From Candidatus Bathyarchaeota archaeon (lineage in GTDB: Archaea > Thermoproteota > Bathyarchaeia > 40CM-2-53-6): 64,000 nt of DNA. Made by a program: the position numbers and the translations under genes. This document shows, one piece after another, positions 9,888-60,212 of the stretch; the stretch's first letter is position 1; each line of letters starts with the position of its first letter. The DNA lies in NCBI GenBank assembly GCA_963706285.1, contig CAVPLU010000003.1:1-64000 (forward strand). The letters run 5' to 3'. The notes under the pieces are model-generated. The model did not search any database. It saw only the letters and a list, made by a program, of their open reading frames with translations, and had not been told where the DNA came from.

Positions 9888-9898
9888 GTGCATATGAC

Positions 9899-12508: not shown

Positions 12509-12558
12509 ACCAGACGCGAAGACGAACTCTCTCTGACGCAGCTATCTAGGGCAGCACC

Positions 12559-13393
12559 CTAGAGAAACACAGCATCTTGCCTTTCGGCATCGTAGAGACC
12601 CGCCTTCAACATGCCTTCAATGTCACCCTTGAGATTCAAAAGTCTCGGGAGTCTTCCGATAGATCCGACGTATCTTCCTCTAACCACGAGCGCCCCTCTT
12701 AGGCCACGAATCTTCTCTGCAGTCTCTAACCCAGCTTGCACGGACGCTTCAACATCGTTTCCCTTAACCGCATTACAGATCGCGGTTGCTGAAGCATCAG
12801 ATAGCGCCGCAGTATCCGCCACGGCAACAGCAGCATCAGCTTCCCCGAACGTCAATGCGTGGCTCACTGAAGCAGAGCTAGTTGAGACGCCGACTGGACA
12901 ATCCTTAGACTCTAGACGAAAACCGATGCGTGCCGAAACCGGTGAGGGGCCTGCGTAGACTCCAACGTTCAAGGGAATTTTCGAGTTTGCCGCAATCTCT
13001 CCACCATTCTCGACAAGAGACACAGAGGCGCCACAAGACGACATGGCCTCTATTGCTAGATCTGCCAAAGCGCCTGGAACCGCAGCAAACGGTCCGACAT
13101 TCGCGGCAGAAGCCGCTTCAGATGCGAGTCGAACAATTCTGGCATCATGTTCTTCGAAGTCTAGAGGACTGAGTGCACATGACGAAAGCAGGGTCTTGTC
13201 TGATATGTTCCTCCAGCAAGGCTCTGTTGAGTAGAATGGATCCTTCTGCGGCTTGAATCGCTGCAGCCAAGTCACTGATGAACAGGAGATTCGACTGCTT
13301 GATGACTCTCCTAGTTCTGAAAAGGCCCCTTTCGAAGGAGATCTGTGGGTTGAGGAGAGTCATTGTCTTCTTCTCCGGATCTACATGGGCCAA
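12559..13393 (-). CDS. UPF0280 / ApbE-like protein (MA1715-type; frameshift near 13175)
   Basis: VGPFAAVPGA, VENGGEIA, STSSASVSHALTFGEADA. Confidence 0.8.
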
Positions 13394-23654: not shown

Positions 23655-23763
23655 GGGCCCGTAGCTCAGTCAGGTAGAGCACCGGAGAAGCACGTTCGGT
23701 GAAGCTTTTACCTGTACGGAGGAGACCCGGGGGTCCCGGGTTCAATTCCCGGCGGGCCCGCCA
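23655..23763 (+). tRNA. tRNA-Lys(UUU) with two introns (30/31: 23686-23703; 37/38: 23711-23724) and encoded CCA
   Basis: Acceptor GGGCCCG/CGGGCCC, D-arm GCTC/GAGC, T-arm CCGGG-TTCAATT-CCCGG; removing both introns gives CCGGG-CTTTTAA-CCCGG. Confidence 0.9.
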
Positions 23764-23813
23764 TATTACACAACAATGATAGACGAGATTTCAATCGCCT
23801 TTCTGTCTATGAT

Positions 23814-23852
23814 GGTTCAAATTGGATGCCCGCACCAAGTGTACCGCTACCA
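23814..23852 (+). repeat. Modular site, first copy
   Basis: GGTTCAAATTGGATGCC-CGCACCAAGTGTAC-CGCTACC; core 23831-23844. Confidence 0.8.
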
Positions 23853-26278
23853 CGAGTAGCGATCGAGAATAGTCTGCGTAATGCGGTTTCTGGCGAGGGC
23901 TTCTTGGCTGATGTTTGCGGATCACAATTCCGAAAGCGTGGATATCACTGCGACGTGCATCGACTAGCAGTGACCGATGACCGAGAGCGTGTTGACCTGT
24001 GTTCACGGTGGAACTGCATGAGACCAGAGGTTGAGATGTGCGTCATCTCGGATATACTTAGAAGCATCGAACGCGTACGCGTCTAGACTCTGGCACGATG
24101 CCAAGACTAACGCAGATCCGAGAACATGGCCAAAGATTGAGGTATTGCAGAAACTCGTATGAGATTGGAGCTTGTATTCATCGGCAGATGTATATGACGG
24201 ATCGACGAATGCAGTAGGACTCGGAGTAACCTCTGGCTCAGAATCTACGACGGCCTGCATCTTGCCAAGGCAGTGATCTATGCAGACGATAGGATACAAT
24301 CACTGTTCGAACGTGAAGCTCCACGTGCTTCGATGCTTGCGAGTCTGGTCAATTGGCACCGATCGTTCGAATGGACCTTCGGAAGAGCTCGCAAGGCTAC
24401 GGGATCATCCCTCGTCATGGGAGCTCCGAGACAGAGTTCGCGTAGATCGCACGAACGCGAGGATTTCACAAGCATGATGAAGTACCAAAGATGCAGGTGC
24501 CTCGCAACGGCGCGACCTGACCTTCAAGGAGCTGATCTAGATGCGTCGGCTATGAAGACGATATTGGCAAGGAGATTGATGGTGAACCGCCAGCCTTGGC
24601 TCATACTGGAAGTCAGCGACAGGATTCCCGGGATCTGAGGTCGGCAGTCTCGGAGAAAACGTGCAACACAGTCGTGATATGTAGCCTCAGATTTGAACCA
24701 GAGTTTCGAAGCGAAGTCAGGATTTAGGAGTTCTGATGCAACCAACTTGACTCACAGGGCACGAGCTAACCGAACTCGCCACAGCTAGACAAGGCATCAT
24801 GCACAGGTGAAGCTACGGTTCGTCCTCGATTGCGGCATTCTACAGATCTCTGAGCAGTTGTACTGCTCTGTTGTTCATTCAACGATGAGTCCAGGTTCGA
24901 GCTGATCGCTGTTGGATGCTGTCTCAACTATGCGACAGGAGGACATTCCAAGTTCGTCATGATCGCACGAAGCATCTATGCCATTAGTGCCAATGCGTAA
25001 TCCCAGAATGACGCTATGGAAGCGAGTCTGGAACGAGGTTCTGTTTACGCATGCAGCGGCCTATGTCGAAAGTCTTGAGACACGCTTCGAGGTAAGTGGA
25101 TCTCTCTCCACTTCATCTCAGTGCTCACGGCAGTTCACGTCAGCGGTCATCCAGGGCTGCGCATCTCAAGTTGTTCTGACTGACGACGGAATAGGGAGAC
25201 GCCACTGACAAGCCCAGGAGCGATCAAATCTGGAACAACCCGGCGTAGACCGCATCAATTGCTCAACCGTCAACAGCCAAGCAATTCCCCACGTCATGCA
25301 AGATGACTATCTATGACGCCGAATGACTAGTCAGACTGGAGCCAGTACGGTGCATGAGCAGAGGTCGCTCGGGTTGCTCCTCGTCTTGGTTCCATGACTG
25401 AACCTTGACCTATCGCATGGCAGCAAACTGCGCAGTTTCCACGACCAACCAGCTGGGGGACTTGCGGAGCACACGAATGCTGAGCCCGTTGAGACGAACC
25501 TTACTTGGACTAACCGTCGCAATCTCGCAAGATGGCGGCATACTACGTCGCGACGATGGGGTTAACGAGCGTGTAGCCTTCCGAGCTGATGAGCCCGACG
25601 ACAGTCATCGAATGGCGTTTCATGATAGACGTACAAGAATCGTCAACGACAAAGTCCTTGCAGGACGCAAATCAGCATGAGTGATACGAACGTCGGCGAT
25701 ACGAGTTACATGATGCAGACGAATCTGCGTCGTCAGTGTACCAAGGCTGCCTTCCGCAATGAAACTTAGACACGCACGGTAAACGTACTGCAGATCGCGT
25801 CCAGTGTAACCGGCGACGAGTTCAGTTGGCATATTGCACCTTCAAGCATTGGAGGATCAAGACGGCGTTTTGATCTCGAGGTACTTGAACGGATTTATGG
25901 GCACCAGGGTCTCCTGAGTACGTGCTTAATGTTCGACAGATTCCTGAAAGAAACTACACGTTGGAGGCGCCGTGCACCTATGTTCCGGAATATCTGTCCC
26001 CAAGGCGCCATTTTGCTTACGCATCAGGTCGCAAGCATCATGAATGCGTTTTAGGACGCTGACTTCGAGTCAAGGTCCTCCTACAGCCAAAGGAACTTGA
26101 ACTGGCAGTTCAGATCTGTGACCGCGCGAATTTACCGACGACGAACCTCTTATACGGACTGGAACTCTTGCCCAACCAGCTGACCACCGACTGAACCAGC
26201 CGTCTAGGGTCCGCTTCGGATCATCTGTAGTTTGCAGTTGCGCAGACCACGCTTCAGAAGCCCTCGAAGACGTTTATG

Positions 26279-28453
<2,175 letters not shown>

Positions 28454-28546
28454 TCAAACGACGCCGTTGTCAGGCAATATTAGAATTGTGCCAGATAGAT
28501 ACGAGAGCTAGGAGTGAGAGATGAATTGGTGAGCTCGCTAATTCTT

Positions 28547-28660
28547 GGTGGTGGGTCCCTTGGTGCGTCCGCGACGACGAAAACTGACGGTTCAATTTGG
28601 GTGCCCGCGCTAAATGTACCACACACACAAATTACCTGAACGTCAACGGTTCAAATTTCA
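28547..28660. repeat. Modular site cluster (cores 28554-28567 inverted, 28606-28619)
   Basis: GGTGGTG-[rc CGCACCAAGGGACC]-..CGACGACG, then GGTTCAATTTGGGTGCC-CGCGCTAAATGTAC-CACACACAC. Confidence 0.8.
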
Positions 28661-29084
28661 GTGCAGTATTGGCCGCTACAACCAATTTCCTTAGCCAATT
28701 GAATCATCGGCATTGATTCCTAGGTTTGAATTCCATTTAACAGCGTTGTTGTGACAGAACTCGATATTCATCCTGCCCACCATCACTACAATAGCTAAGA
28801 GCTACTGCCAGGATAGTTCTTGATTGCGAAAACCGAAAGTTGGTCGTCGCGAAGGCTTTCCAGTTCCCACGGTAAATTCGTCATTGGTGTTGCGGTTCCG
28901 AACGCTACCCATGATGGAGCAGCAGTTCCTCCAGTAGTTCTCTGAACGGCGTTGGCGACATTCTTTCCGAGCTTCTCTTCAAGATAAGTCAGATCGTCTG
29001 GCTGAGTGGTCGCCCCCAGCAGGAAAGTTTGAATCTGCAGATCACTGCTTAGTTAGGCCCTGGAAGTACAGAGAGGAGAGCACG

Positions 29085-29429
29085 ATGAGCAACGAACAGG
29101 TGGCACCTGAGACGAAAGGTGTTACGGTGAAGTTGCTTGCAACGGTTGACCTTGGCCCTGAGATCGAGGGCATGGCAGGGCGCCAACTTCGAATGCGTAT
29201 GGTGACCATCGAGCCTGGAGGCGTCTTCGGCCCGATTCACGACCATAAAGACAGACCAGGCACCGTCTACATACTGCAAGGAACGATCACTGACCATCGA
29301 AATGGAGTCGCTACGGTCTATGGGCCGGGAGTGGGCTGGCCCGAGGATAGGAACACCACACACTGGCTTGAGAACAGAGGAACGATTCCGGCGGTGGAGA
29401 TCTCGGTCGACATAGTCAGGCAAGAGTAA
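29085..29429 (+). CDS. Cupin domain protein
   Basis: VTIEPGG..HDHKDRPGTVYILQGTI..GPG...THWLENRG; SD GAGGAG. Confidence 0.85.
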   Translation: MSNEQVAPETKGVTVKLLATVDLGPEIEGMAGRQLRMRMVTIEPGGVFGPIHDHKDRPGTVYILQGTITDHRNGVATVYGPGVGWPEDRNTTHWLENRGTIPAVEISVDIVRQE

Positions 29430-29543
29430 GCTCAGGTCCTCTGGTTCATACTACTGGGACTCACACTACTCACCGATCTTCGGATGGATGTTCACTGCGT
29501 GTCCGGGACTACTGAACTTTGCAGTTGTCGTTCGTCGTTGAAA

Positions 29544-29665
29544 GTGTGCGTGGTATCAGTGGTGCGAGCATCGCAAATTGAACTGTGTGTTTGCGCACCA
29601 AGCTACCCACACGCCACACAACACAAAATTCCAAAACCACGAACAACGACGATTCAGATCCGGAT
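29544..29665. repeat. Modular site cluster (cores 29553-29566 minus, 29594-29607 plus)
   Basis: rc GTTCAATTTGCGATGCT-CGCACCACTGATAC-CACGCAC back-to-back with TGTGTGTTTG-CGCACCAAGCTACC-CACAC. Confidence 0.8.
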
Positions 29666-29892
29666 GCTCGACTCCACCAAGGGCCATTGGGTATCTGCTT
29701 GCCCCCAAAGAGAACTATGTTGATTCTTGCGTGAAGAGTTGAGTACTCTTTCCCAGTCCCTACTGACATCCATCATGTTCCGGATTTGTCGACATCCGTA
29801 CAAGGAACGTGCTCTGTGACATCAATTCGGGACCGCATCACGAGACAATCTTAATTATCCTGTCTCTACCAGCAAAAGTGGTTTGATGAACC

Positions 29893-30973
29893 ATGGTTGA
29901 ATTAGACTTCGGTGGCACAGTAGAAAATGTCATCACAAGAAAAGAGTTCACGATTAAGCAAGCCCAAGAAGTCTTGAAGGGCGAAGTTATCGCCACTCTC
30001 GGGTACGGCATCCAGGGTCGAGCTCAAGCCCTGAACATGCGGGACAACGGGATAAAAGTCATTGTTGGACAAGAGAAAGGCATTCACACCTCTTACTATG
30101 ATTCAGCTGTTGGGGACGGGTGGGTTCCAGACGAGACACTGTTTCCGATGGAAGAGGCTGCACGACGGGCAACCATCAAGATGTTTCTGCTCACAGACGC
30201 AGGACAGAGAGCAGACATGGCCCGTAGTTCGAGGAACTCTGAAGGAAGGCGACGCACTGTATTTCTCACACGGATTCTCCATAGTCTACGGAAACATAAC
30301 AGATGTCATCCCGCCGAAAAACGTCGATGTGATCTTGGTCGCCCCGAAGGGCTCCGGCACATCCGTTAGACGAAACTTCCTCGAAGGTAGCGGCATAAAC
30401 AGCAGCTTCGCCGTTCATCAAGACCACACAGGGAGAGCCTACAACCGAGTAAAGGCCATGGGCATCGCCATAGGCTCAGGCTACCTTTTCCCCACGACCT
30501 TCGAACGCGAAGTGTACAGCGATTTGACAGGCGAAAGAGGCGTATTGATGGGCGCCATAGCAGGAATAATGGAAGCCCAATACAACACACTTAGAGAGCA
30601 CGGACACAGCCCAAGCGAAGCCTTCAACGAAACCGTGGAGGAACTAACCCAAAGCCTCATCAGACTAGTTGATGAGAACGGTATGGACTGGATGTTCAAC
30701 AACTGCAGCGAAACCGCCCGCATAGGCGCGTTGCGATGGAGAAAACGCTTCCGCGACAACACCAAACCACTCTTCGACTCACTATACGAACTTGTAGTCG
30801 CGGGCGAAGAAACCCGCATAGTCCTTGAGAAAAGCAACGCGCCAGACTACAGACAGAAACTCGCGGAAGAACTCAAAGCCATGGGTGACTCCGAACTCTG
30901 GAGAGCAGGCGCCACAGTCCGATCCTTGCGACCGCAAAAAACGGGTTCAAATTCAAAGGCCCGCACCAGCTGA
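29893..30973 (+). CDS. ilvC: Ketol-acid reductoisomerase, Bacteroidetes/fungal-like long type (frameshift near 30210)
   Basis: LGYGIQGRAQALNMRDNG, YFSHGFS, VAPKGSG, SDLTGERGVLMGA, SPSEAFNETVEE. Confidence 0.9.
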
Positions 30974-30986
30974 CCCACACACAATT
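30944..30986 (+). repeat. Modular site overlapping the ilvC stop (core 30962-30975)
   Basis: GGTTCAAATTCAAAGGCC-CGCACCAGCTGACC-CACACACAATT. Confidence 0.85.
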
Positions 30987-30998
30987 CAAAGTCCAAAT

Positions 30999-31600
30999 TT
31001 AGACCCTTAGCGAGCCACGGAACGCCCTAACGCCATAGAAAGAGGGCGCACTGTTATGATACACGAAGACATGGCCGTAGCGGCGATCAGCAAAGAGGGC
31101 GCCGCCGAGTTTTCTAATATCAGAAGGTGTTTTCACCCAGCTCGACGTCTTCGTATCGAAATTTCCAAGTTTCTGCAACTCTCGATATTGTTCTTCCGTT
31201 AAAAGCTCAATGCCCATGGCAGCTGCCATATCAATAGCGTTATCTTCTGGTTGCACCCTTGCTTTTCCCTTGCCTCCTGCCCTTCACGGTCGTAACAAAC
31301 ATTTCTGCGGCCTTTAGGACTTTCCGCTGAACAATCATAAAAAATGTATTCGCCCGTCTTTTTATCATGACCAACAACATCCGGTTCACCGCCAGTTCTT
31401 TCCATTTCATTGAGTGACCACAGTTTTTCAGTATTAGCTTCCAGCTTTGCTTGTACTTTAGCCCATTCAAGACCTTTATGGCGGTTCATGTTTTTCTCAA
31501 AACGGGCTTTCAATGCTCTGAGTAGTTCTTCACGTTGTTCTGGTGACAACTCTTTTTTGAATGCAGTAATTGATGGCTTGCGCATAATCATAGTATTCAT
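30999..31600 (-). CDS. DUF4256 family protein (frameshift near 31260)
   Basis: LKARFEKNMNRH, MERTGGEPDV, SAESPKGRR, FDTKTSSW, LGGALFADRRY; visibly AT-richer than neighbours. Confidence 0.8.
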
Positions 31601-31869
31601 CCTGAGTTTATAAAATCATCTATGCAGGGTGACGTTTACTTTACAACTCATTGATTGAGAGTTCTCACCTCTAGATTCTATTTCAACATAGATTCAAGAA
31701 CTTTCTTCTAACATATCTCAGCATAGATCTATGCGTAGAAAGATTAGACTAAGGCGTTTCCTGTAACAGTATAATTCTATTGCACATGTTTCTAGCCTAG
31801 AATTCTAGGTATAAGACATTGACTTCTATCGTCTAGGCGTCGTCCGTGGCAGGAATAGGCGTTGAAAAT

Positions 31870-31901
31870 GTGTGTGTGCGCACCAAGGGTACCACACACA
31901 C
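31870..31901 (+). repeat. Modular site, symmetric form (core 31879-31892)
   Basis: GTGTGTGTG-CGCACCAAGGGTAC-CACACACAC, perfect 9-bp inverted arms. Confidence 0.88.
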
Positions 31902-32107
31902 GTGCGAAAGCGTTTCACGGTAACGTCAACTCGGAATCTCAGAACATCTGGGTCATGTTCCTATCTCTTTCTCTCGTGGTGAACTCTCTTGCTTTTGACA
32001 GATCCAATTGCCTGAATGAAGCATATATTCCAAGAATTCCGGCATCCCGCTAACCAGGAGAATGAGAGAGTTGATATTTCGCCATTAGTGGATTTGACTG
32101 ATTTCAC

Positions 32108-32560
32108 ATGTATCGAGAATGGGTACCCGTCGGCAGACTCGTTCTGGCATTAACACTATTCTTCATTGGCCTTAGCGTATTCATTGTGGCCGCAAGCATA
32201 GTTGCCGGAGAATCATCGGACATAGGTATAGGCACAACTCTGGTTCCTGTTATGTTCATCCTCGCGATCTTATGGAACTTCCGCGGCTTACGGATAGAGA
32301 TCGATGATATTGGGGTGACGGTCAAGTATGGCATGCTGAACAGTAAGCGCATTCTTTTTGATGAGATAGTCTCATGTGAACCAGTAGAATCCACATTCGG
32401 TAAGTATCTAGGGGTAGGGATCAGATATGGTAGAGACGGCTCATTTGCGTACACCACATCTTTCGGTTCAGCGGTGAAGATAAGTACGAAAGAGGGACGG
32501 CCCTTCGTCTTCTCTACACACCATCCTGAAGACGTCTGCAGAGCTATCTTGAACGAATAG
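32108..32560 (+). CDS. Membrane protein with C-terminal PH-like domain
   Basis: Two TM helices then IEIDDIGVTVKYG..RILFDEI..GVGIRY..FVFSTHHPE. Confidence 0.7.
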   Translation: MYREWVPVGRLVLALTLFFIGLSVFIVAASIVAGESSDIGIGTTLVPVMFILAILWNFRGLRIEIDDIGVTVKYGMLNSKRILFDEIVSCEPVESTFGKYLGVGIRYGRDGSFAYTTSFGSAVKISTKEGRPFVFSTHHPEDVCRAILNE

Positions 32561-32587
32561 AATTCTCTTGAATTCGCCATTTTTCAG

Positions 32588-32795
32588 GTGGTGGTGCGCA
32601 CCAGCTGACCCGACGACGAACACCCCTCCTATGACGGTTCAAATTTGGGTGCCCACGCTAAGCGTACCGACGACGAAAACACGCCACTCCCATGCAGGTT
32701 CAAATCTGACTGCCCGACCCAATTGTACCGACGACGCAAAGCGCCCCTCCCATACGACGTCCAGTTCTTCGATGACCGCACCAGGGAACAACAAT
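32588..32795 (+). repeat. Tandem array of four modular sites, period about 61 bp (cores 32597, 32654, 32715, 32777)
   Basis: Unit GGTTCAAAT-N5-TGCC-core-CGACGACG-AAA-CGCCCCTCC-CAT repeated. Confidence 0.88.
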
Positions 32796-32885
32796 TCGGC
32801 CGAGTATCGCAAGTCAGTCCAGGCAAAGCGACTTCATAGGAAGAACTCAACTGACAGTAAACGTACTAGGCTTTTTATGTGGTGA

Positions 32886-33332
32886 ATGAATTTGCCTGAG
32901 AGGGATATTCCACTGCCCACGTCTCCGAACGAAAACATGAAGTCTCCCCCGTTTTTTGCTGCACATGATTTCATTGTTACCCATTACAAGGACTATAGCA
33001 TCTGGCTCTCGACTTTCGGTAGAAAGACCTGCAAACCACGACTCGTTCAAATATGGTTCGCCTTTGTGAACGATCATTTCTACGTATTTTCACGCGGTGG
33101 GCTTGGCTCTCAATGGGCCAAGAACGTCTTGAAGAACAACAGGGTGATCGTGAACCTTGCAGGAAAAGCCTTCCTTGGCACAGCTCGCCCGCTACGGGAC
33201 AATGACATGCGCGATGAAATCTACAAGTACTACAAAGGAAAATACAGGTTCTATCCCCAGACGTACATATTTTCTTGGAAGAAGAGAGTCCTGTTTGAAA
33301 TCGAACTTGAAGGGCTAGCTGACCTCACTTAA
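32886..33332 (+). CDS. Deazaflavin-dependent nitroreductase-like / split-barrel protein
   Basis: LSTFGRKTCKPRLVQIWF...SQWAKNVLKNNRV; true start probably further downstream. Confidence 0.65.
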   Translation: MNLPERDIPLPTSPNENMKSPPFFAAHDFIVTHYKDYSIWLSTFGRKTCKPRLVQIWFAFVNDHFYVFSRGGLGSQWAKNVLKNNRVIVNLAGKAFLGTARPLRDNDMRDEIYKYYKGKYRFYPQTYIFSWKKRVLFEIELEGLADLT

Positions 33333-33400
33333 GGATAATGAAATCATCACACGACTCCCTCAAGACGTGTTGACAGTAGGGCAAACCTTGACAATCTGCA

Positions 33401-33510
33401 TGTGTGCGGATCGCTTGGTGATCGACGACGACGCACACTTCACGCGCGGCGACGACGAAAACGCCCCTCATGTCGGGTTCAAATCTTGCTGCCCGCGCGG
33501 TACCGACAGC
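33401..33510. repeat. Modular site cluster
   Basis: TGTGTG-[inverted core]-CGACGACG ... CGACGACGAAAACGCCCCTCATGTC-GGGTTCAAATCTTGCTGCC-CGCGCGGTAC. Confidence 0.75.
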
Positions 33511-33669
33511 TTGGCAAGCTGTACGGGGGGTAATATTGCCGACTCTCGCAAGGGTTGAAGAATGTTTGGTCGTGCCACGTCGTCCTGTATGCTGAGTGGG
33601 GTCGTGAGATAGTTGATCGCTCAGCGAGGTTGCTTGTGGTTGCGTTTCTTGAGGTCTCGACTGTGATGC

Positions 33670-34488
33670 TTGCTCCAGAGCTACTCATCGCCAACTCGAG
33701 TAGGGCTTGAGCCAAGTGTCAACTCATCTCCACGAGGCGTCTTCTGGACACTCGTCAAGGAGGTCTTCTGGTCTCACTTCACACGGCGAGGATCAGTGGC
33801 GGCGGGCATGAGAATGGTTGCCCGTTCTGAATCCTGCTACCGGGTATTCAACGAGTGGAGCGTACCCACAGGCAGCGGAGCTGGATTTGGGATCTTTGTT
33901 GATGCTGGCTTCGTCTACTTCACGCAGGGCTATTACAACAAGATTGGGCGCTTGAGTGATATCGGTCCTGGCACTACGATTTATGCCAACTTGATTAGCA
34001 CTTCAGTTGCGACTTTAAGTCAGGTATCGACTGCGACAGGCACCTTCTTCTCAGCGGTCACCACGACGAGTGTGACCGCAAGCACAACGTCTGTGAGCCA
34101 CTCAACTGCCAGCGTCGCAACATCGCTGTCAGATGTTTTCCAAGCGCCGTACAGGACGACCACAGTGTCATATGTAACGAGCATTGCGATCATTGACGGT
34201 ACGTCGACGATTTACTCGACAATGGCCACGGTAAGCACGGTTGGAACCAGCACGTTAACCTCGTTCACCACTTCAACGACTACTTCTGGCGGAACCATAA
34301 TGCAGTTTGTAACTGAGACCCATACTGTATACGCGTACTTGCTGATGATACATAAGGCAATTGCACCTGTAGGCGGCTTCATCGAATCCGTCAACAAGCT
34401 CATGCTGCTTGTGTCGTGGCTTGCAGTCATCGGTGCAGTCGCTTGCATCGGCACCGTAGTCATGATCGTGAAGAAGCGTCGTCCGTAG
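33670..34488 (+). pseudogene. 5'-truncated Ser/Thr-rich surface protein with a Vgb-like repeat remnant and C-terminal TM anchor
   Basis: NEWSVPTGS..FGIFVD..VYFTQ..NKIGRL, long Thr/Ser tract, PVGG..TM..KKRR; no credible N-terminus. Confidence 0.55.
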
Positions 34489-34490
34489 TT

Positions 34491-34570
34491 ATTTGTGTGT
34501 GCCTCTAGTGGCGCAGGCGTCGGAATTTGAAGCGTTGATTTTGTGTGTACGCACCAAGGTACCCATGCAC
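34491..34570. repeat. Modular site cluster (cores 34502-34515 minus, 34550-34563 plus)
   Basis: rc CTTCAAATTCCGACGCC-TGCGCCACTAGAGG-CACACACAAAT, then TTGTGTGTA-CGCACCAAGGTACC-CATGCAC. Confidence 0.8.
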
Positions 34571-34998
34571 GATAGCAAGCGAGCACAATAGCCTCCCTCC
34601 TCCAGAATGCTGGACAAAAGGATCAATCAACGTCGTATTTCCGCAACATCTCGAGTGTAAGCTAGTAGGACGAACCATAGGCGAGATACTGCAACTTACG
34701 GACGAGACGCATGTGGGTCCATTAGAGTTCACGCCTGAATCGTTCCCTTTCCAGATCCCAGATCAGATCGAGATCGGAGAGGCCTATGCGGAAGACCCAG
34801 ACGAGTTTCGCTCGGCAAGAACCCCAACGAGCCCATTCTAAGGCTCCATATTATGGCGGTTCAGGTGTAGTTGGCACCAAAAATCTGAAATCCTCGCTAG
34901 CATACAGAATAGATGTCCTTCTCGGGCAAGATGTCCGCATATACGGAGGGGACTCGGTAACGGAATTGTTGGTATTCCTTTGGAGTGTGAGTAAATAA

Positions 34999-37506
34999 GT
35001 GATTTCAAAGAATATTGGTCTTGACTGCAGGCATGGTCGGTTTGAGAAGAAAGGTAAGTTTCTCCTCGTAGTATCGTTAACGTTGGTCCTAATCATTAGC
35101 AGTGGAAGTTTTCTTACATCAAACGTTCTTGGCCACGTGACTGGCAAGACGCTTCAGGGATGGGCGCCGACTCCGCCTTCAATCGATGGAGACATCGTCG
35201 CCTCGGAATGGCAGACCGCTGCGTCATCCACATTCTCCTTGACAATTGGAGGAAACCCTTACGCAGGCACATTGTATATCATGAACGATGCGACCAATCT
35301 GTACCTAGCAGTTGCGATAGCAGATCCGACCTTCAGCCCTGATCCCACACCTGACGCCGTCGCTTTCTACTTCGACAATAACCACAACGGTATCTATCAA
35401 CCAGGTGAGGATTCCGTCGCGCAGTACTCCGGGGTAACCGGGTTCAGGGACCGATTTTTGCAGGCGATCCCTACAATGGGAATTGATGTGGCTTTAGGTG
35501 GAACTACTGACGGGTCCGGAGCCTGTGCCGCACACGCCGGTAACAACCACTTTGAGATATCCCATCCTCTCAACTCATTCGATGATGCACATGATTTCAG
35601 CCTTGGCCCGCTGAGTACCGTCGGTTTCACTATGGGGTATGCCGATGCGGCAGTGGGACAGGACTATTGGCCAGCCATCGCCACGGAGAACACTACGACT
35701 TGGGGTGATATCGTAATTGCTTCAGCTCCTCAGACCATGATGGCGTGGGCTTCGACGCCACCAACCATCGATGGTGTTCTCGGAGCCACCGAGTGGACAG
35801 GCGCTGCCCACACATCCTTCTCGATCGGCTGGAGTTTCGTCGGTGACCTATGGGTCATGAACGACGCCACCAACCTATACGTGGCTGTCAAGATCGCAGA
35901 TACATCTCTCACAACCATGGACAGGCTTTACATCGCCTTTGACAACAACAATAATGGTGTTCGTGAAGCGGGAGATGACATACTTGGAGTAATGGGCGAT
36001 GGAGAATTCATGGATCTGTTTTGGGGCCCCACCACCAAGTTTGACAACTTCGAAGCAGGAAGCTCCGATGGTGAAGGCAAATCATCCGGCTCCGGCGGTT
36101 TCAACAGCTTCGAAATTAGTCACCCGCTCAACACAGCAGACAACGTACATGACTTCAGTCTGACTGCAGGGGACACGGTTGGCTTCGATTTGGAGTACTG
36201 GGAAGAGGCAACAGGATACTGGGGAGACTGGCCTTCCCTGAACGCCAGAAGCTGGGCACACATTATCGTCGCCTCAGCTTCAGTGCCTACACCGGATTTT
36301 GCACTAGCGTGCGCTCCATCACCATTGAGTTTGACTCAAGGCGGAAGTGGCACGAGCACATGCACAGTAACTTCGCTGAATGCGTTTAGCGCAGCAGTTG
36401 GGCTTTCAGGTTCATGGGTTGGGGCAGCACCATCTGGTGTCACACAAGCACTTCCAACGCCCATAACGCCTACCTCCGGCGGGAATGCAACATCAATCCT
36501 AACAGTCACAACCGCTGCTAGCTCCTCAACCGGGTCCTTCACGTTCAGAGTTACCGGAACAAGCGATGCGCTCACACACGCCGTGGATATACCAGTTCAG
36601 ATAAACTCCGGCGCAAGTGACTTCACAATTACCGTAAGCCCAGCTTCACTTTCACTTGGTCCCGCTGCATCCGGAACCACAACGATAACAGTACAATCCA
36701 TAGGAACATTCTCCGCGCCGGTAACCCTGACGGGTTCCGGACTCAGCGGGTTGAACTTGGCCCTCGGTACCAATCCAGTGATCCCCCCAGCAGGCGGAAT
36801 CGCTCAAGCAGTCCTCACCATCACAGTAGCTGGAGCGCCCATAGGATCGCACTCAGTGACGATTACAGGAGCAAGTGGCGCACTTGGTCACAGTACCACG
36901 CTTACCGTCGAAGTCACCGGCACCGGAGGAGGATGCTTGATTGCCACAGCCACCTACGGATCCGAACTTTCAGATGAAGTACAATTTCTCAGAGGCTTCC
37001 GCGACAATTCAATCATGAAGACAACCTCGGGATCCAGTTTCATGATCGCTTTCAACGCTTGGTACTACTCATTCAGCCCAACCTTCGCACAATTCATACG
37101 CGAACACTCAACCGCAAGAACCATCGCAAAGGCAACGCTCTATCCACTCATGGGTATCCTCAGATTGGGCGCCGCCACATTTCAGGTGTCTCCAGCGAAC
37201 CCTGAGGCAGGTGCAGTGCTGTCAGGGCTACTAGTAAGCTCGCTCATAGGAGTAGTTTACCTAGCTCCTCCACTGGCGATAGCACTTGTCTTCTCTTCAA
37301 GACTACGTCGAATCGCGAAGAAACTGCAGTTGCCTATTATGATGATCCTGTTCAGCACCATGATGGTTGTGTCTTTCGTCATGATTGTTGGCGCACCTGG
37401 CATACTGACTATGCTTGCAACGTCCGCAATTGTACTCTCAAGTCTGATTGCTTCGGGACTATTCGCTTCGCATGCAATCCTGCGTGCGGTGAAGGATCCC
37501 AAATAG
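34999..37506 (+). CDS. Cell-surface protein: signal peptide, two CBM9/DOMON-like domains, two Ig-like repeats, CFI-box-CTERM and TM helices
   Basis: Duplicated PP(S/T)IDG..EW..MNDATNLY..FDNN..FEISHPLN; DF(A/T)..P..L..G.S.T repeats; CLIATATYGSELSDEVQFLRGFRDN. Confidence 0.8.
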   Translation: MISKNIGLDCRHGRFEKKGKFLLVVSLTLVLIISSGSFLTSNVLGHVTGKTLQGWAPTPPSIDGDIVASEWQTAASSTFSLTIGGNPYAGTLYIMNDATNLYLAVAIADPTFSPDPTPDAVAFYFDNNHNGIYQPGEDSVAQYSGVTGFRDRFLQAIPTMGIDVALGGTTDGSGACAAHAGNNHFEISHPLNSFDDAHDFSLGPLSTVGFTMGYADAAVGQDYWPAIATENTTTWGDIVIASAPQTMMAWASTPPTIDGVLGATEWTGAAHTSFSIGWSFVGDLWVMNDATNLYVAVKIADTSLTTMDRLYIAFDNNNNGVREAGDDILGVMGDGEFMDLFWGPTTKFDNFEAGSSDGEGKSSGSGGFNSFEISHPLNTADNVHDFSLTAGDTVGFDLEYWEEATGYWGDWPSLNARSWAHIIVASASVPTPDFALACAPSPLSLTQGGSGTSTCTVTSLNAFSAAVGLSGSWVGAAPSGVTQALPTPITPTSGGNATSILTVTTAASSSTGSFTFRVTGTSDALTHAVDIPVQINSGASDFTITVSPASLSLGPAASGTTTITVQSIGTFSAPVTLTGSGLSGLNLALGTNPVIPPAGGIAQAVLTITVAGAPIGSHSVTITGASGALGHSTTLTVEVTGTGGGCLIATATYGSELSDEVQFLRGFRDNSIMKTTSGSSFMIAFNAWYYSFSPTFAQFIREHSTARTIAKATLYPLMGILRLGAATFQVSPANPEAGAVLSGLLVSSLIGVVYLAPPLAIALVFSSRLRRIAKKLQLPIMMILFSTMMVVSFVMIVGAPGILTMLATSAIVLSSLIASGLFASHAILRAVKDPK

Positions 37507-37578
37507 TCAATGCGTGTAATGAGCCAGCGGTGGAGGACATTGTTGCGGCGGAATTCTACCCTCGTCGTTGAGGTATTT

Positions 37579-37648
37579 TGTATGTGTGCCACCAAGTAAC
37601 CCGACGACGATTCAAATACGCATTTCCGCGCCAAGTCTACCGACATCG
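37579..37648 (+). repeat. Two adjacent modular sites (cores about 37589 and 37627-37640)
   Basis: TGTGTG-CCACCAAGTAACC-CGACGACG-ATTCAAATACGCATTTC-CGCGCCAAGTCTAC-CGACATCG. Confidence 0.8.
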
Positions 37649-38043
37649 AATTCTCTTGCTGCTCCTGACGTGTCCAAGAATCCTCTAACGTCATGTTCGA
37701 ACCTGTTTCGTACCTTGACCACCAACCGGGATCCTGATCGCCTTGATTTGAGCGACTGTGTATGCCTCTTTGAGGCGTTCCACCATAGACCCCCCTTGGC
37801 GGCGGGTTTCGATTTTTTGGAGGGTTTGGGCATGGTTCTCAGCTTCACTGTTCGATTGGTAGCGAGGCTCTTGAGGGCGTTCTGGAGTACAAGAAGCCAA
37901 TGCCAAACTACGAGTGTTGTTCTGCCGGACAGCAAGGTCTCAAGAAATCATAGCACAAATCCTTCGCGCACTACCGGTGTTCTCGGTCTTGGCCGTTTCC
38001 TTAGATGGATACGCTTTTCATCGTCAACGCGCTGTTTCTGGGC

Positions 38044-39027: not shown

Positions 39028-39063
39028 AATTGTGTGTGGGGCTAATGGTGCGCACACACAATT
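39028..39063 (-). repeat. Modular site, symmetric form (core 39039-39052)
   Basis: AATTGTGTGTG-N14-CACACACAATT, perfect 11-bp arms; core rc CGCACCATTAGCCC. Confidence 0.88.
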
Positions 39064-39157
39064 GTGCTCGTCTCGCTCACAGCGACTTGTCAAGTTTTCA
39101 TTGTATCACGAAGATAAAAAAAGGAAAGAAAATGAGTTGAGAAGAAACTGAGCGGGG

Positions 39158-39550
39158 TCAGTGTTTCGCCTGTTTTGACATGTACTCTCCGGCTTGTGCG
39201 AACTGTTTCTTGAACTTTTCAAAGTCAACATTGGCCGCGTGCAGTATGGAGCTCCAACCAGTTGTGAATCTAGTGAGAAATGCGGTCTCGGCGATTTCAT
39301 CATCAGTAGCACCGTTCATTCTGGCGGCTCCTGTGTGGAAGTGAATACAGTACGGGCAATGGATTGCAGACGCGACCGCTAACCCCATAAGCTCACGGTA
39401 TTTGGCAGGTATCTTGGTTTCTCCGAAAGAGAACTTCTTCATCTCCGCCCATTCGTGAGGAAGTGCATCATGCGGAATCGCAGTGAATTGATCAAGCACT
39501 ATGCCCATAGTCTTCTTGATATCGGCAAGAGCATTTTCATATTCTCCCAT
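39158..39550 (-). CDS. Carboxymuconolactone decarboxylase / AhpD-like protein
   Basis: KYRELMGLAVASAIHCPYCIHFH..A...GAT..EI. Confidence 0.88.
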   Translation of the reverse strand: MGEYENALADIKKTMGIVLDQFTAIPHDALPHEWAEMKKFSFGETKIPAKYRELMGLAVASAIHCPYCIHFHTGAARMNGATDDEIAETAFLTRFTTGWSSILHAANVDFEKFKKQFAQAGEYMSKQAKH

Positions 39551-39848
39551 TCAATGTAACACCTCTGATACCCATCTTACCTTCGGGCGTTTCAGGTTTT
39601 CGGTATTTGCAAGTGTTTTTCATGTACTCTGCGGCAACAAAGACAGCTTCGTCGTCGTTTGGTAGATGTGTGCACCATGAAGGCCGCACAGAGAGAAACG
39701 ACGATTTGAATCCGGATAGCATGAAATCTGCCCATAGGTTTGATAGATCAGTACAAAATCCTCGAGTTAAGGCTGGCTAGATGCACGTTTATGCGAGTAC
39801 AGAACTTATACCGAAACAGACACCACTAGGCTTGGGATCGACTAGTAG

Positions 39849-40253
39849 ATGGCTTCAGTTCGAACAGCGGTCGGAATAGTTCTATCCATCATCGGCTTCG
39901 TCCTGCTGCTGTATGCCGGGTTGAACTTCAACAACCTCTTTTTCATTCAAGAAATGTTGACAGAAGCAGATATTCCAGCTTACGGCAGATCTGTAGCCGC
40001 GCCTGCGTTTCTGGCTCTATTGGTATTGTTGGACGGATCATTCGTGTTGGGTCTTAAGAGAGTCTTCAGTCTGAGCGTTCACGTTCTGGGTAACTTCGTC
40101 TGGTTGCTTGCGCTTCTCCAATTGGATCGGAACTTGGCCATGCCGATTACGGCTGTCTCAGCCTATCAACAGATCTTCTACCTAGTATTGGTGGGCGTGA
40201 TCTTCTTTATCGTGGGTGTCATAGTGAACGATATTCCACAACGCAAGAAATAG
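39849..40253 (+). CDS. Hypothetical 4-TM membrane protein
   Basis: Hydrophobic ORF, TATA-like CTTATA upstream, flanked by repeat sites. Confidence 0.65.
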   Translation: MASVRTAVGIVLSIIGFVLLLYAGLNFNNLFFIQEMLTEADIPAYGRSVAAPAFLALLVLLDGSFVLGLKRVFSLSVHVLGNFVWLLALLQLDRNLAMPITAVSAYQQIFYLVLVGVIFFIVGVIVNDIPQRKK

Positions 40254-40309
40254 AGAATCATGAATTATGCAGATTGGAAGCTAACATTTCTACAAACGGA
40301 GTGTTGAAG

Positions 40310-40798
40310 ATGAAGGGCATAGTTGTTTATGACACCTCCTACGGAAACACCAAGAAAATCGCAGAGACAATCGCAGAGACACTAAAAGAGTCTGGAATAG
40401 AAGTTGATCTCTTCAACGTAAGAGACGTAAAGAAGTTAAGCGCAAAGGACTACGATTTCTTGGTTCTCGGTTCTCCGACCAAATTTGGCACAATGAGCTT
40501 TGCAATCAGATTCTTCTTGGGCAAGGTGAAGAGTGAGGAATGGATGAACAAGCCTTTCGCAGCCTTCGACACTGAAAATCCTGAGAACATGGAGAAGAAA
40601 GAATATAGTGCAGCCGAAAAGATTGCTGAAAAGCTCAAAGAGAAGAAGATGAACCAACTGTTGCCAGTTCTGAAAGCCGCTGTGTTGGGGCAAAAGGGAC
40701 CGCTTATAGAAGGCGAAATCGAGCGGACAAAAGACTATGCAAGGGAACTCGCCATTAAATTGAAGGAAGAAAAAGGTCTGAAGAACAATTTTTGTTGA
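40310..40798 (+). CDS. Flavodoxin domain protein
   Basis: VYDTSYGNTKKIAE, LVLGSPT, AAFDT. Confidence 0.88.
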   Translation: MKGIVVYDTSYGNTKKIAETIAETLKESGIEVDLFNVRDVKKLSAKDYDFLVLGSPTKFGTMSFAIRFFLGKVKSEEWMNKPFAAFDTENPENMEKKEYSAAEKIAEKLKEKKMNQLLPVLKAAVLGQKGPLIEGEIERTKDYARELAIKLKEEKGLKNNFC

Positions 40799-40972
40799 GC
40801 GAGGAGAATTTCACGCGTAGACCAGCTCAAACGTCGCGAAAAGTCGAAGAGCCTCCTCCACGCTAAGATCATTCGCCGACGCTCAATGGTGATGACTTTG
40901 AGTGTTTGACTATGGTCATCAAAGCCACAACGCGTCAGAAGCGCCTTCTGACGGAGTCTATTCTAGGGCCTA

Positions 40973-41144
40973 GTGTGTGGGTTTAATGGTGCGCACCACC
41001 ACCAAAACTGCCTAAACGACAAGGGTTCAATTTACGATGCCCCCCAGCTGACTCACGCACTTTGGTGATCGTGCTAGCTTCGCTCTCAACACAAGTCTCA
41101 GGACAAGGACTGGATCCGACTGATCTCTCCCGCACCAAGGTACC
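40973..41144. repeat. Modular site cluster (cores 40980-40993 minus, about 41041, 41131-41144)
   Basis: GTGTGTG-N14-CACCACC; GGTTCAATTTACGATGCC-CCCCAGCTGACT-CACGCAC; CGCACCAAGGTACC. Confidence 0.78.
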
Positions 41145-41674
41145 GGGGAAAACGGTTGCGTCTTCCTTGCATTTGCTGGTGTCATCGTGATAACGATGGG
41201 AGGCGCTTCGACGGCTTCTCTAAGCTTGTTTGAGCCTGTTGGAGTGTTGCTCATGGTTGCCGCTGCCTTCTGCTGGGCAGGCTATTCATTCTCGGCAAGA
41301 GGGTACTCCATGGTTACTCCAGCGCCGTTGCCACGTCTTGCGTGTTTCTGCTCGGCACGTTGTACTTGATTCCATTCGCGCTCGTTGAAGGCCACACAAG
41401 CCTCGTTCTGAATTCATCATGGATGACGTGGCTTAGCATCGTCTACCTAGCGATACCGAGCTCCGTGATCGCTTACATGCTTTGGAACCGCGCGATAAAA
41501 GAGATTGATATCACTAAACTCCTCGTCGCAATGTACGCCATACCAATACCAACAGCAATTCTCTCCTACCTATTCCTCGGGGAGAAGATAACATACTTCC
41601 TACTCCTCGGCGGAGCTCTCGTCATCATCGGAGTCTATCTGACAGGATCATCACGAAGCAACCACCACGCCTAG
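41145..41674 (+). pseudogene. C-terminal half of an EamA/DMT transporter, 5'-truncated at a repeat core
   Basis: FLAFAGVIVIT, AAAFCWAGYS, IAYMLWNRA, LFLGEKIT..GGALVIIGV. Confidence 0.72.
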
Positions 41675-45377: not shown

Positions 45378-45461
45378 AAGAGGCCCCTCTTTCCCGGAAA
45401 GAGGCCCCTCTTTAGGTCAAAGCGGCACCTCTTTCCCGGAGGGCGGCACCTCTTTGCAGAG
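45378..45461. repeat. 4 x 21-bp tandem repeat
   Basis: AAGAGGCCCCTCTTTCCCGGA / AAGAGGCCCCTCTTTAGGTCA / AAGCGGCACCTCTTTCCCGGA / GGGCGGCACCTCTTTGCAGAG. Confidence 0.85.
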
Positions 45462-48615: not shown

Positions 48616-49110
48616 TCAAAGACTCTGCGACTCTTCCTCAAAGAATCCTGTGAGTGATGCTGGGATTTCCACCATAGGTCTTGCTCTCTGATATTCTGCC
48701 CGAGTTACGGACTTGGTCTCCATTTCAAGGAAAGCCCTAGCCATCCCATCTTGCTTTAGTTCAGCCCTGATCTGGGCCATGGGTCCCTCACGCTTGACGA
48801 TCCAGCCTGTCCCCGATATAGGACGTTTTGTACTCATATCTCCGAGCTTCATGTCAATCGTCTTAGGCATTAGGGGAACTCGATGAAGAATTCCACCGGC
48901 TGTCCAGATGATCAGATCGACGAGCACTGCGTATACAATTCCAGGGTTGACGACACCGGGCTGACCAGACCACCACTTTGTAGGGATGCATTCGGTGGTG
49001 ACACGATCGTCTCCCTTGAAGAATCTCAGTCTAAGGCCCATCGGATTCTGTGGGCCACACCCGAAGCAGAGGTTGTCGTCCGAATTTTCGAGTTCGACTC
49101 GTTGAGTCAT
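48616..49110 (-). CDS. PaaI/hotdog-fold thioesterase-like protein
   Basis: CFGCGPQNPMGLRLRF, GQPGVVNPGI...D. Confidence 0.78.
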   Translation of the reverse strand: MTQRVELENSDDNLCFGCGPQNPMGLRLRFFKGDDRVTTECIPTKWWSGQPGVVNPGIVYAVLVDLIIWTAGGILHRVPLMPKTIDMKLGDMSTKRPISGTGWIVKREGPMAQIRAELKQDGMARAFLEMETKSVTRAEYQRARPMVEIPASLTGFFEEESQSL

Positions 49111-49220
49111 GTAGACACAGGCACCCCGCCGTCTTTATATCAATTCCGAAGCGTGCTTCCGCGATTTGAAATTGAGGAACTAAGAAGGGTGATCGTTTGC
49201 TTTACCACAGTTTTTGAAAA

Positions 49221-49360
49221 GGTGGTGGTCTGCTCTGGATGCTTGCGCCAGAATTTGGACAGGCATTTACGTGTGTGTGGGTACCGTGGCGTGCACACAC
49301 TAAATTGCACGAACGATTACGGTTCAATTCACGGCACTTGCACCAGACTCACACAAATCA
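49221..49360. repeat. Modular site cluster, three copies (cores about 49228 minus, 49280-49293 minus, about 49339 plus)
   Basis: GTGTGTGTG-GGTACCGTGGCGTG-CACACAC flanked by outward-reading G(G)T(T/C)CAA(A/T)T arms. Confidence 0.78.
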
Positions 49361-49504
49361 AACGAAAGACGACGGACGAGAGCTGAAATTCGGATTGTAG
49401 CCTCTTGTTGTACTGATTTTCTTACGGACAGCGCCAAGAATGGACTCTGGTAGACAGTTCGGAAAGCCAAGTTGAAATACTGACCGAGACTAATCCTAAC
49501 AGTC

Positions 49505-53464: not shown

Positions 53465-53627
53465 GGTTAAGATTTGGACGCGTACCATAAGACCAACACG
53501 CAATCAGTCCAAGAACGACGGTTCAAATTCTTGTGCTCCGACCAAGTCATACCGTGCACACGACGACAACTGCTGACAACCAGCTCACGACTCAAACCCA
53601 GTGCTCACGCAAGGAGCGCACACAATT
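53465..53627 (+). repeat. Tandem of three degenerate modular sites
   Basis: GGTTAAGAT..CGTACCATAAGACC; GGTTCAAAT..CGACCAAGTCATAC; GACTCAAAC..CACGCAAGGAGCG-CACACAATT. Confidence 0.68.
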
Positions 53628-60102: not shown

Positions 60103-60212
60103 AGGGTCATCATCCAAGATTCGGTCGACTCGTTGAAGATGCGATGATCATTGCTCCGACGGATCAGATATCTGCATACTGTCTTCATGAAGATGATTAT
60201 GAAGATGTGGAT

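Follow-up and report, generated by a model that had tools for sequence, protein, structure and literature searches.

Casposase-type target-site duplications as the probable origin of a cassette array and its 61-bp tandem in a Bathyarchaeia genome

Casposons are the proposed ancestors of the adaptation module of CRISPR systems and, to our knowledge, are known only as single or paired large elements. Here we describe a 64,000-nucleotide stretch of DNA from a Candidatus Bathyarchaeota archaeon (the window; positions 1 to 64,000 of contig CAVPLU010000003.1, assembly GCA_963706285.1), in which a 15-bp sequence resembling casposon targets separates the modules of a 42-kb array and also recurs in a tandem with a period of 61 bp at 32588-32795. 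The array is probably the product of repeated insertions by a Cas1-type integrase (casposase) at a tRNA-like leader-repeat, and the tandem a run of minimal inserts.

Casposon targets are described in several reports. The A. boonei enzyme needs a 15-bp duplicated segment plus the neighboring 18 bp, which encode the T-loop part of tRNA-Pro, and 5 bp of the tRNA end lie within this duplicated segment (PMC5137440). Casposons of M. mazei have 14-bp duplications with a conserved 5'-CGCA and require 30 bp upstream, from tRNA-Leu; the crystallised target is CGCACTTAAGCGTG (PMC6977970). Duplications of five euryarchaeal casposons overlap the last 4 to 7 nt of tRNA genes (PMC4046053), and Methanosarcina contains tandem casposons parted only by a shared duplication as well as solo ends by CGCA sites (PMC4779613). 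A 2023 review distinguishes four casposon families, all cas1-polB islands, and the terms “non-autonomous,” “MITE” and “Bathy” do not occur in it. Bathyarchaeia were not reported as casposon hosts in the literature searched, where co-mentions of casposons and “Bathyarchae” are sparse. Publications on casposons, archaeal integrons, tRNA-fragment islands and Bathyarchaeia mobile elements contained no such arrays, the supplementary tables of the casposon papers, which possibly list PolB-less relatives, lying outside this scope.

The genome studied (G000) comprises 2.13 Mb in 21 contigs and is 89% complete; other genomes are numbered likewise (G001, G113 and so on), with C denoting a contig, and G001, of the same genus, is the nearest relative searched. 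On the 217-kb contig of the window, the array spans 23.8 to ~66 kb. We call the 15-bp repeat the core, the tRNA T-arm-like leader before it the tail, and the short C-rich simple-repeat end of an insert the head. A T-type junction reads tail, core, head, while an H-type junction reads reversed head, core, head.

Direct reading bore out the four consecutive cores of the original prediction, all on the plus strand: core 1 at 32597-32611 (CGCACCAGCTGACCC), core 2 at 32654-32668 (CACGCTAAGCGTACC), core 3 at 32715-32729 (CGACCCAATTGTACC) and a degenerate core 4 at 32777-32791 (CGCACCAGGGAACAA), the 15-bp consensus being CGCACCAAGnGTACC. Tandem Repeats Finder (TRF) agreed, reporting period 61 for 32610-32753 (2.4 copies, 76% matches, score 147), the sole long-period tandem among its 19 rows for the window. 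Successive cores are separated by 42 to 47 bases in a fixed order of head, linker and tail. The head is short and C-rich (CGACGACGAAAAC, also given as GACGACGAAAAC), the linker is often CCCCTCCTATGAC, and the tail mimics a tRNA T-arm (GGTTCAAAT, six bases, GCC). Unit 1 (32612-32668, plus strand) consists of head GACGACGAACAC, linker, tail GGTTCAAATTTGGGTGCC (32636-32653) and core 2; unit 2 (32669-32729, plus strand) of head GACGACGAAAAC, linker, tail GGTTCAAATCTGACTGCC (32697-32714) and core 3; and the degenerate unit 3 (32730-32791, plus strand) of head GACGACGCAAAG, a decayed tail and core 4. The inner units had been taken for empty acceptor sites; each in fact holds a 42- to 47-bp insert of head, linker and tRNA-like tail between two cores.

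The 61-bp unit is a real, conserved, multi-copy sequence, as seen from a motif control together with a profile search. Head motif CCGACGACGAAAAC (≤2 mismatches, window) occurs 5 times against 0.65 expected, a count reached in 0 of 100 shuffles; the tail motif GGTTCAAATCTG, counted in the same way, occurs 11 times against 6.3 expected and is weak on its own, since a count of 11 was reached in 6 of 100 shuffles. Four window units were used to build an nhmmer profile, which scored these seeds at E values of 3e-17 to 1e-12, high by construction (3.2e-17 for unit 1 and 2.5e-14 for unit 2); unit 3 has a weak E value of 11. Non-seed copies on other contigs reached E 1e-12, with 50 matches at E ≤ 10 genome-wide. 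The spacer described earlier as AAA..CGCC.CTCC.AT is likewise real and recurs on other contigs and in relatives in this search.

A degenerate or unusual CRISPR-like array yielding guide RNAs with a 61-bp period would share several of these traits: the period of 57 to 63 bp lies within the CRISPR range, a leader-like element precedes each repeat, and Cas1 relatives are involved (see below). The inter-core “spacers,” however, are conserved copies of one another that recur on other contigs and in other genomes, the repeat measures 15 bp rather than 25 to 50, most intervals are kilobases of genes, no cas genes were found nearby when the window was scanned, and the units show no fold. We consider this explanation highly improbable.

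Tail and first half of the core together have the geometry of a tRNA 3' end: a T-loop TTCAAAT, 5 bases, 7 bases, one base and CCA. They resemble true tRNA ends of G000, such as GGTTCAAATCCCTCCCCCCGCACCA on contig 4. The core consensus CGCACCAAGCGTACC starts with CGCA and shares a 7-base overlap, including CCA, with the tRNA-like end, and the T-loop mimic precedes it. At one locus of a relative (G002:C24), GCCTACC and CGACGACGACG, a (CGA)n head, come immediately after a genuine tRNA 3' end, ...CCCACCA. None of the cores exactly matches the last bases of the neighboring tRNA.

H-type junctions are exemplified at 31863-31903 by TGTGTGTGT-GCGCACCAAGGGTACC-ACACACAC. Heads are of the kinds (CA)n, (CGA)n and (CCA)n, and in relatives also (CCG)n, and the two arms of an H-type junction are independent of each other: the mixed GGTGGTGGT-core-CGACGACGA at 32588-32620 cannot pair. 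The P-core-P' arrangement that had been proposed is thus no palindromic acceptor; its arms are the independent ends of two neighboring inserts. Tail-core-tail' with one common core was not found, the sole convergent tail pair in the genome (C9 27625-27715) having two cores.

Dispersed intergenic repeats of the REP/MITE/NIME kind, acting as protein-binding, terminator or RNA-processing signals and shuffled as a by-product of homologous recombination, might produce part of this picture. Profile matches number ~73 at E ≤ 1 on 10 of the 21 contigs, copies are intergenic, junctions of the end-core-end type fold into stable hairpins where their arms are (CA)n (z −2.7 and −3.7), and an insertion sequence (IS) of the IS110 family targets the core in two relatives. 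Against this, the copies are clustered in few arrays, with similar ones on contigs 9, 10, 16, 14, 6 and 4; all 23 matches at E ≤ 1 on the 217-kb contig fall within 23808 to ~65.9 kb. Cores also cut into genes (EamA, below), nothing constrains the arms to pair, folding of the units is no better than that of shuffled sequence on both strands (z 0.68, 1.45, −0.49 and 1.65), and no Rfam family was matched in the array apart from the tRNA gene. The perfect 15-bp duplications around Cas1 elements, described below, would be left unexplained, and we regard this alternative as improbable.

Duplicated cores flank two Cas1-less modules of the window. Element A (30977-32596, plus strand, 1.62 kb) carries a truncated DUF4256 gene, the inner junction at 31863-31903 and an open reading frame (ORF) without assigned family. 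Its left duplication copy (30962-30976, plus strand, CGCACCAGCTGACCC), preceded by the tail GGGTTCAAATTCAAAGGCC of the adjoining KARI cassette, which serves as its leader, matches core 1 of the tandem in 15 of 15 positions; the tandem under study therefore starts at the right-hand duplication of element A. The ends of this element are of different type, CA versus CCA: the left end reads CACACACAATTC... (also given as CACACACAA...) and the right end ...CAGGTGGTGGTG (also given as ...GGTGGTGGTG). Element B (39053-40978, minus strand, 1.93 kb) has (CA)n-type inverted ends and contains CMD-family and flavodoxin genes. Its flanks CGCACCATTAAACCC and CGCACCATTAGCCCC (39038-39052 and 40979-40993) match in 13 of 15 positions and represent a rare core variant.

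In silico removal of 30977-32596 together with one copy of the 15-bp duplication placed the KARI site immediately ahead of the tandem. TRF still reported 2.4 copies with period 61 on the rebuilt stretch because coding sequence lies upstream, so that the result is only local. Of the proposed backbone of landing pads split by inserted modules, what survives is that cores are insertion sites with modules between them; the arms form no palindromic acceptor. The shorter tandems listed with it are all present (~33395-33510, 37579-37652, 53465-53627 and 60210-60318).

The array begins beside a tRNA gene and its contents have moved between relatives. The intron-bearing tRNA gene at 23655-23760 (plus strand; Rfam RF00005, 52.8 bits) has an orthologous tRNA and flank in relatives, and together with a shikimate operon precedes the array; G000 has a GHMP-type shikimate kinase, and almost all of its tRNA genes contain introns. 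The first T-type site (23808-23853, plus strand; nhmmer E 1.9e-08), consisting of tail GGTTCAAATTGGATGCC, core CGCACCAAGTGTACC and the start of the first insert, begins 48 nt past the tRNA gene. In G001, conservation extends over the tRNA, the 48-nt interval and the first site, while the DNA past the first core differs.

The KARI cassette (29593-30976, plus strand; ilvC-like, frameshifted, with a core at each end) recurs as a 96% identical block on another contig of G001 (C335), where homology begins at one core, stops at the next and gives way to DNA that in the window lies 7 kb off. A (CGA)n unit of the same type follows the G001 cassette at once; it is 24 nt longer, and orthology with the window unit cannot be claimed because only 53 of 91 aligned columns are identical. 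An aldehyde-dehydrogenase block has a 94% duplicate on contig 10 of G000 that starts right after a core, and EamA, intact in G001, is cut in the window exactly at a core (41131-41145, plus strand), which is fused directly to the interior of this transporter gene. The remaining EamA gene (41342-41674) is 5'-truncated at the core.

As a side observation, a core followed by GGGGATATAGGT (GGGGAAAAC in the window, 41145-41160) is found again behind the last core at several positions and in several genomes, among them G000 contig 4 at ~177716, contig 14 at ~587, and L163 at 12557-12590; this sequence may be original DNA downstream of the target. A flavodoxin gene in a lower-G+C genome of another family (L005, G028:C58) is 87% identical to window positions 40282-40769. 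Identity is confined to the gene, and the flanks there bear repeats rich in GCGCGCGC that are of another type and may represent a further site family.

Elements carrying an intact Cas1 gene occupy the same kind of site in relatives. We fetched six loci with full-length Cas1, and both element ends were readable in four. These four elements of 7 to 9 kb are flanked by the core as a 14- to 15-bp direct repeat, perfect or near-perfect, have simple-repeat inverted ends of ~10 to 20 bp and encode a ~400-aa Cas1. Each of the four has a T-type junction on its leader side and an end plus a core at the far side. The ~9-kb element of G113:C3 reads tail-CTCACCAGCTAAAGC-GACGACGACGACGA... on one side and ...TCGTCGTCGTCG-CTCACCAGCTAAAGC-next head on the other (15/15), its ends being CGACGACGACGA and its complement, of (CGA)n type. 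G265:C3 contains two tandem elements of ~8 kb each, beginning tail-CGCACCACTATACC-(CA)n, with the same 14-15-mer present three times. The ~7-kb element of G280:C45 reads tail-CGCACCAGCTGACCC-(CCG)n and (CGG)n-CGCACCAGCTGACCC-next head (15/15), and the ~9-kb element of G138:C14 reads tail-CGCACCAAGGTACC-(CA)n and (TG)n-CGCACCAAGGTACC (14/15). Their other gene content is variable (SIR2, ATPases, a DUF4365 protein), and a TIR protein lies beside cas1 of a fifth locus with undefined ends (G307:C50). A conserved “trio” around cas1 was considered and rejected, as the downstream ORFs are only 15 to 17% identical and the upstream ORFs have no mutual BLASTP match at 1e-3. Of the features by which casposons are recognized, a duplication of ~14 to 15 bp, terminal inverted repeats and a preference for tRNA 3' ends with an upstream T-loop leader are found in the relatives.

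G000 itself contains C-terminal Cas1 fragments at 48969-49376 and 248699-248806 of contig 10 and at 515-1006 of contig 9, the first and last of which sit inside or beside other arrays; the window holds neither a fragment nor a whole Cas1. All of them begin past the catalytic Glu and His motifs. Fragments of similar extent occur in several relatives, which suggests a recurrent 5' truncation of the casposase. A G000 fragment is 65 to 78% identical, over 85 to 96% of its length, to the C-terminal part of a Cas1 family of ~400 residues (521 matches). A full-length family member matched PDB 6opm_A with E 2e-75 over residues 1-401, versus 8e-26 for the best CRISPR Cas1; we take 6opm_A to be the M. 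mazei casposase because the accession 6OPM occurs twice in the parsed text of the structure paper (PMC6977970). Motifs VEG and YDLxEPFR are present in six of six full-length copies.

To follow sites across the class, a tail-plus-core pattern allowing ≤2 mismatches was run over 301 genomes, with a reversed-pattern control that gave 0 everywhere. Multiple copies were confined to the genus of G000 (up to 62), part of genus g4, family f2 and a handful of further genomes, such as a single f9 genome with 9 copies and several from g33, in another order, with up to 7; in the rest of the class the pattern matches 1 to 3 true tRNA genes. Among the 87 genomes of the order covered by both searches, a casposase-family match at ≥44% identity was present in 14 of the 19 with at least 5 sites and in 11 of the 68 with fewer, and any match at E ≤ 1e-10 in 17 and 20, respectively. 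We set the 44% cut post hoc so as to leave out CRISPR-type Cas1, genomes that are related do not count as independent, and the pattern favors the genus of G000. In genus g2, none of the 19 genomes has a casposase, and there are no arrays, only tRNA-like single matches. Among the sites listed, at least 8 lie ≤5 kb from a casposase gene or fragment on the same contig (for example G286:C34, with the casposase at 6850-7032 and the site at 7052-7078).

Other recombinases were searched for as well. Tyrosine recombinases (PF00589) were not matched in G000, in a search whose control was positive in 14 of 14 genomes, nor in G003, G005 and G006 of the same genus; serine recombinases, IS200-type or IS110-type transposases and reverse transcriptases also gave no match in G000, which has one TnpB. 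A weak tyrosine integrase (16 bits to PF00589) lies in a 4.5-kb integrative element of G004 (L016, C27 7366-11830), located between the orthologous tRNA and the cassette array.

This element brings to mind an integron- or tycheposon-like system, in which attachment (att) sites derive from a tRNA 3' end and circles are moved in trans by a tyrosine or other conservative recombinase, each leaving a partial tRNA copy. In favor of such a system, the sites resemble a tRNA 3' end, a tRNA adjoins the array, shuffling of cassettes is seen between relatives, a classical integrative element stands in G004 between the same tRNA and the array, and tycheposon islands with scattered partial tRNAs have been described in bioRxiv 10.1101/2020.12.28.424599. 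The G004 element, however, has at its borders not the cassette core but 17 nt of the true tRNA 3' end as a direct repeat, and its integrase family, present in 33 of 91 genomes of the order, tracks site numbers poorly; we therefore rejected it as the array enzyme. Conservative recombination cannot yield end-core-end junctions yet never tail-core-tail', the inverted simple-repeat ends and the Cas1 inside delimited elements fit transposition, and the lack of PF00589 in four genomes and of any core identical to the end of the neighboring tRNA also argues against it. We judge this system unlikely.

Two further candidates were rejected. A 437-aa ORF adjoining the first sites of G004 is without relatives in the 9 other genomes of the genus that were searched. 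IS110-family transposases are found on site-bearing contigs in four relatives, but they are inserted into the core and are not its cause. An element of this family with the subterminal inverted repeat ATGAAAATTCTC entered the core at one and the same position, with GCCCGCA on one side and CACCAAG on the other, in two genomes (L136, G002:C24, 3869-5245; L133, G005:C54, ~9520-10915) and appears to be a site-specific parasite of these sites. IS1111-type elements target REP and integron attC sites.

Under the casposase explanation, the 15-bp core would be the target-site duplication of a Cas1-type integrase, and the T-arm-like tail the leader that directs it. Insertion would cut the two strands 15 bp apart, the incoming DNA, with ends of short C-rich repeats, (CA)n, (CGA)n, (CCA)n or (CCG)n, would be joined, and gap repair would leave one core on each side of the insert. 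Repeated insertions at or near the tRNA 3' end would then build a 42-kb string of modules separated by cores, in which a leader-core-end junction would mark a target and an end-core-end junction two abutting inserts. The tandem at 32597-32791 would correspond to three minimal inserts of 42 to 47 bp, each with one element end and a leader copy. Since each mini-insert carries its own leader copy, each would recreate a usable landing pad and the tandem would be a chain of pads. Cargo-only modules and mini-units would have been inserted by a casposase acting in trans, and multiplication of the mini-units may have proceeded either through their insertion as elements of 46 bp or through unequal crossing-over between cores. 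Nothing is presumably active in G000 now, because only casposase fragments are present there.

Several observations weigh against this explanation. Most adjacent cores of the window differ, and only two module-flanking pairs match well; CAGCTGACCC is moreover a recurrent core variant, so that a 15/15 match is less improbable than it looks. The 20 oriented cores listed divide into 13 plus and 7 minus, which simple leader-proximal insertion does not predict, and the explanation supplies no worked-out origin for the numerous internal sites that bear tails or for the content conserved in mini-units. An intact casposase was not found in G000, only fragments. Five of the 19 site-rich genomes lack a casposase match at 44% (two of these have one at 37 to 42%), 11 site-poor genomes have one, and the site-rich G245 and G248 gave no casposase-family match at any threshold. 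Direct repeats flanking elements also arise from tyrosine-integrase att sites. Finally, casposons as defined carry PolB, which the delimited elements do not: the scanned ORFs within the elements of G113 and G138 included no PolB, and PF00136 had no match inside the four delimited loci, so these elements are not self-synthesizing. PF03175 gave no match either, but its control genomes also gave none. An 870-aa PolB lies ~5 kb from cas1 on G265:C8 and resembles a PolB of 870 to 910 aa found once per other genome.

Core-bounded modules run on both strands from 23808 to the end of the window (64000) and on to ~65.9 kb, where the array ends; ~34 junction loci were recognized by hand. Their cores separate unrelated accessory genes, several of them broken (Pfam): KatG, a frameshifted KARI, a truncated DUF4256, F420H2-reductase-like, CBM9, rhomboid protease, CMD-family and flavodoxin genes; an EamA fragment, aldehyde dehydrogenase, Imm5-like, hemerythrin, TFS-like, MFS and SDR genes; and isochorismatase, a split CorA, a flavodiiron-like protein and a glycosyltransferase cluster. 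The KARI gene (29893-30973) is split over two overlapping frames, CorA (52408-53371) consists of two ORFs, and the DUF4256 gene (31199-31600) spans only profile positions 1-94 of 173. The KatG catalase-peroxidase gene (26279-28435, minus strand) lies in a block of 59.8% G+C, versus ~51% around it, with a degenerate T-type site (26104-26150) on one side and a junction (28541-28568) on the other; the block looks recently imported.

The shorter tandems vary in form. At 33395-33510 a minus-strand junction is followed by a plus-strand CGA-type unit (33449-33506; nhmmer E 4.1e-15), and at 37579-37652 (plus strand, E 4.4e-04) two cores enclose a very short insert in which CGACGACGA is fused to TTCAAAT. 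Three degenerate tail-core units occupy 53465-53627 (plus strand; E 3.1e-05 for 53509-53564), and two tail-core units with a spacing of 62 lie at 60210-60318 (plus strand; E 1.5e-04 and 0.2). Two other repeats were noted. A 21-bp tandem at 45378-45455 (AAGAGGCACCTCTTTCCCGGA, 3.7 copies) forms small hairpin-like units between two junctions, and an 18-bp-period repeat at 61411-61614, unrelated to the sites, encodes a Thr/Ser/Pro-rich low-complexity stretch of ORF 61162-61713.

Public data sets added little to the picture. The best sequencing run contains ≤22% of the sampled words of 28001-38000, and four read runs showed at this locus only joints between site-like repeats with sides of <30 nt, the repeat-family artefact expected in metagenomes. 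A looser site-pattern scan of species genomes returned 88 loci, some on Bathyarchaeia contigs and others in bacterial tRNA genes; the stricter, exact scan returned 0.

If these interpretations are right, one casposase-type target has here been reused dozens of times, resulting in kilobase cassette arrays on one side and in short leader-repeat tandems with a CRISPR-like period on the other. Should a casposase indeed move cargo-only modules, this would be a second, non-integron route to prokaryotic cassette arrays and a natural system for studying the path from transposon target to repeat array; the simplicity of site and enzyme puts in vitro work within reach. It is tempting to go further and assume a working, PolB-less Cas1-solo capture platform in Bathyarchaeia that inserts almost any DNA with short C-rich ends at a portable tRNA-like leader-repeat and builds arrays of integron size, the 46- to 61-bp tandems, with their leader, duplication-derived repeat and short inserts, being a living intermediate between casposon target and CRISPR array; we hold this to be possible but doubtful.

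Comparison with known systems places the locus among several of them. Tycheposons of Prochlorococcus (bioRxiv 10.1101/2020.12.28.424599) likewise form islands by a tRNA with scattered tRNA-3'-like fragments, niche-gene cargo and remnants of older elements; theirs, however, are copies of their own tRNA made by tyrosine recombinases, whereas here a diverged, multi-locus site family is tied to Cas1. An exact copy of the tRNA 3' end, the hallmark of tyrosine-integrase islands, is found at the 4.5-kb element of G004 and not at the cassette cores. Integrons, including archaeal ones (PMC9668308), share arrays of mostly single-gene, promoter-poor accessory cassettes with a short recombination site in between and the occurrence of many arrays without an enzyme gene (CALIN-like). 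The targeting of the site by an IS110-family element also recalls the IS1111-type elements of attC sites. Unlike integrons, the present arrays have no IntI and no attC hairpin with R''/R' boxes (a RYYYAAC/GTTRRRY pair was not found in the units by eye), contain sites in both orientations, and use sites that mimic a tRNA end.

CRISPR leader-repeat arrays share a leader with a duplicated repeat, ordered accretion and, in the tandem, a period of 57 to 61 bp. They differ in that the repeat here has 15 bp, conserved element ends or entire genes take the place of unique spacers as inserts, each mini-unit has its own leader copy, and Cas2 and effector genes are absent from the locus. In form, the tandem seems to stand midway from transposon target to CRISPR array. 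The closest counterparts are family 2 casposons (AciBoo-C1 and M. mazei). Here the host belongs to the Bathyarchaeia, PolB is missing from the four delimited loci, the inverted ends are simple repeats of ~10 to 20 bp of at least 4 kinds, and dozens of small Cas1-less modules and 42- to 47-bp mini-inserts form long arrays; the duplications around the two window modules match in 15 of 15 (element A) and 13 of 15 positions (element B). Shared with family 2 are a Cas1 with a C-terminal extension that matches the M. mazei structure over its full length, a 14- to 15-bp duplication starting with CGCA and overlapping the last bases of a tRNA or tRNA-like 3' end, an upstream T-loop leader, inverted ends, tandems with one duplication between elements, leftover solo ends, and a core consensus that resembles the crystallised M. 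mazei target in sequence.

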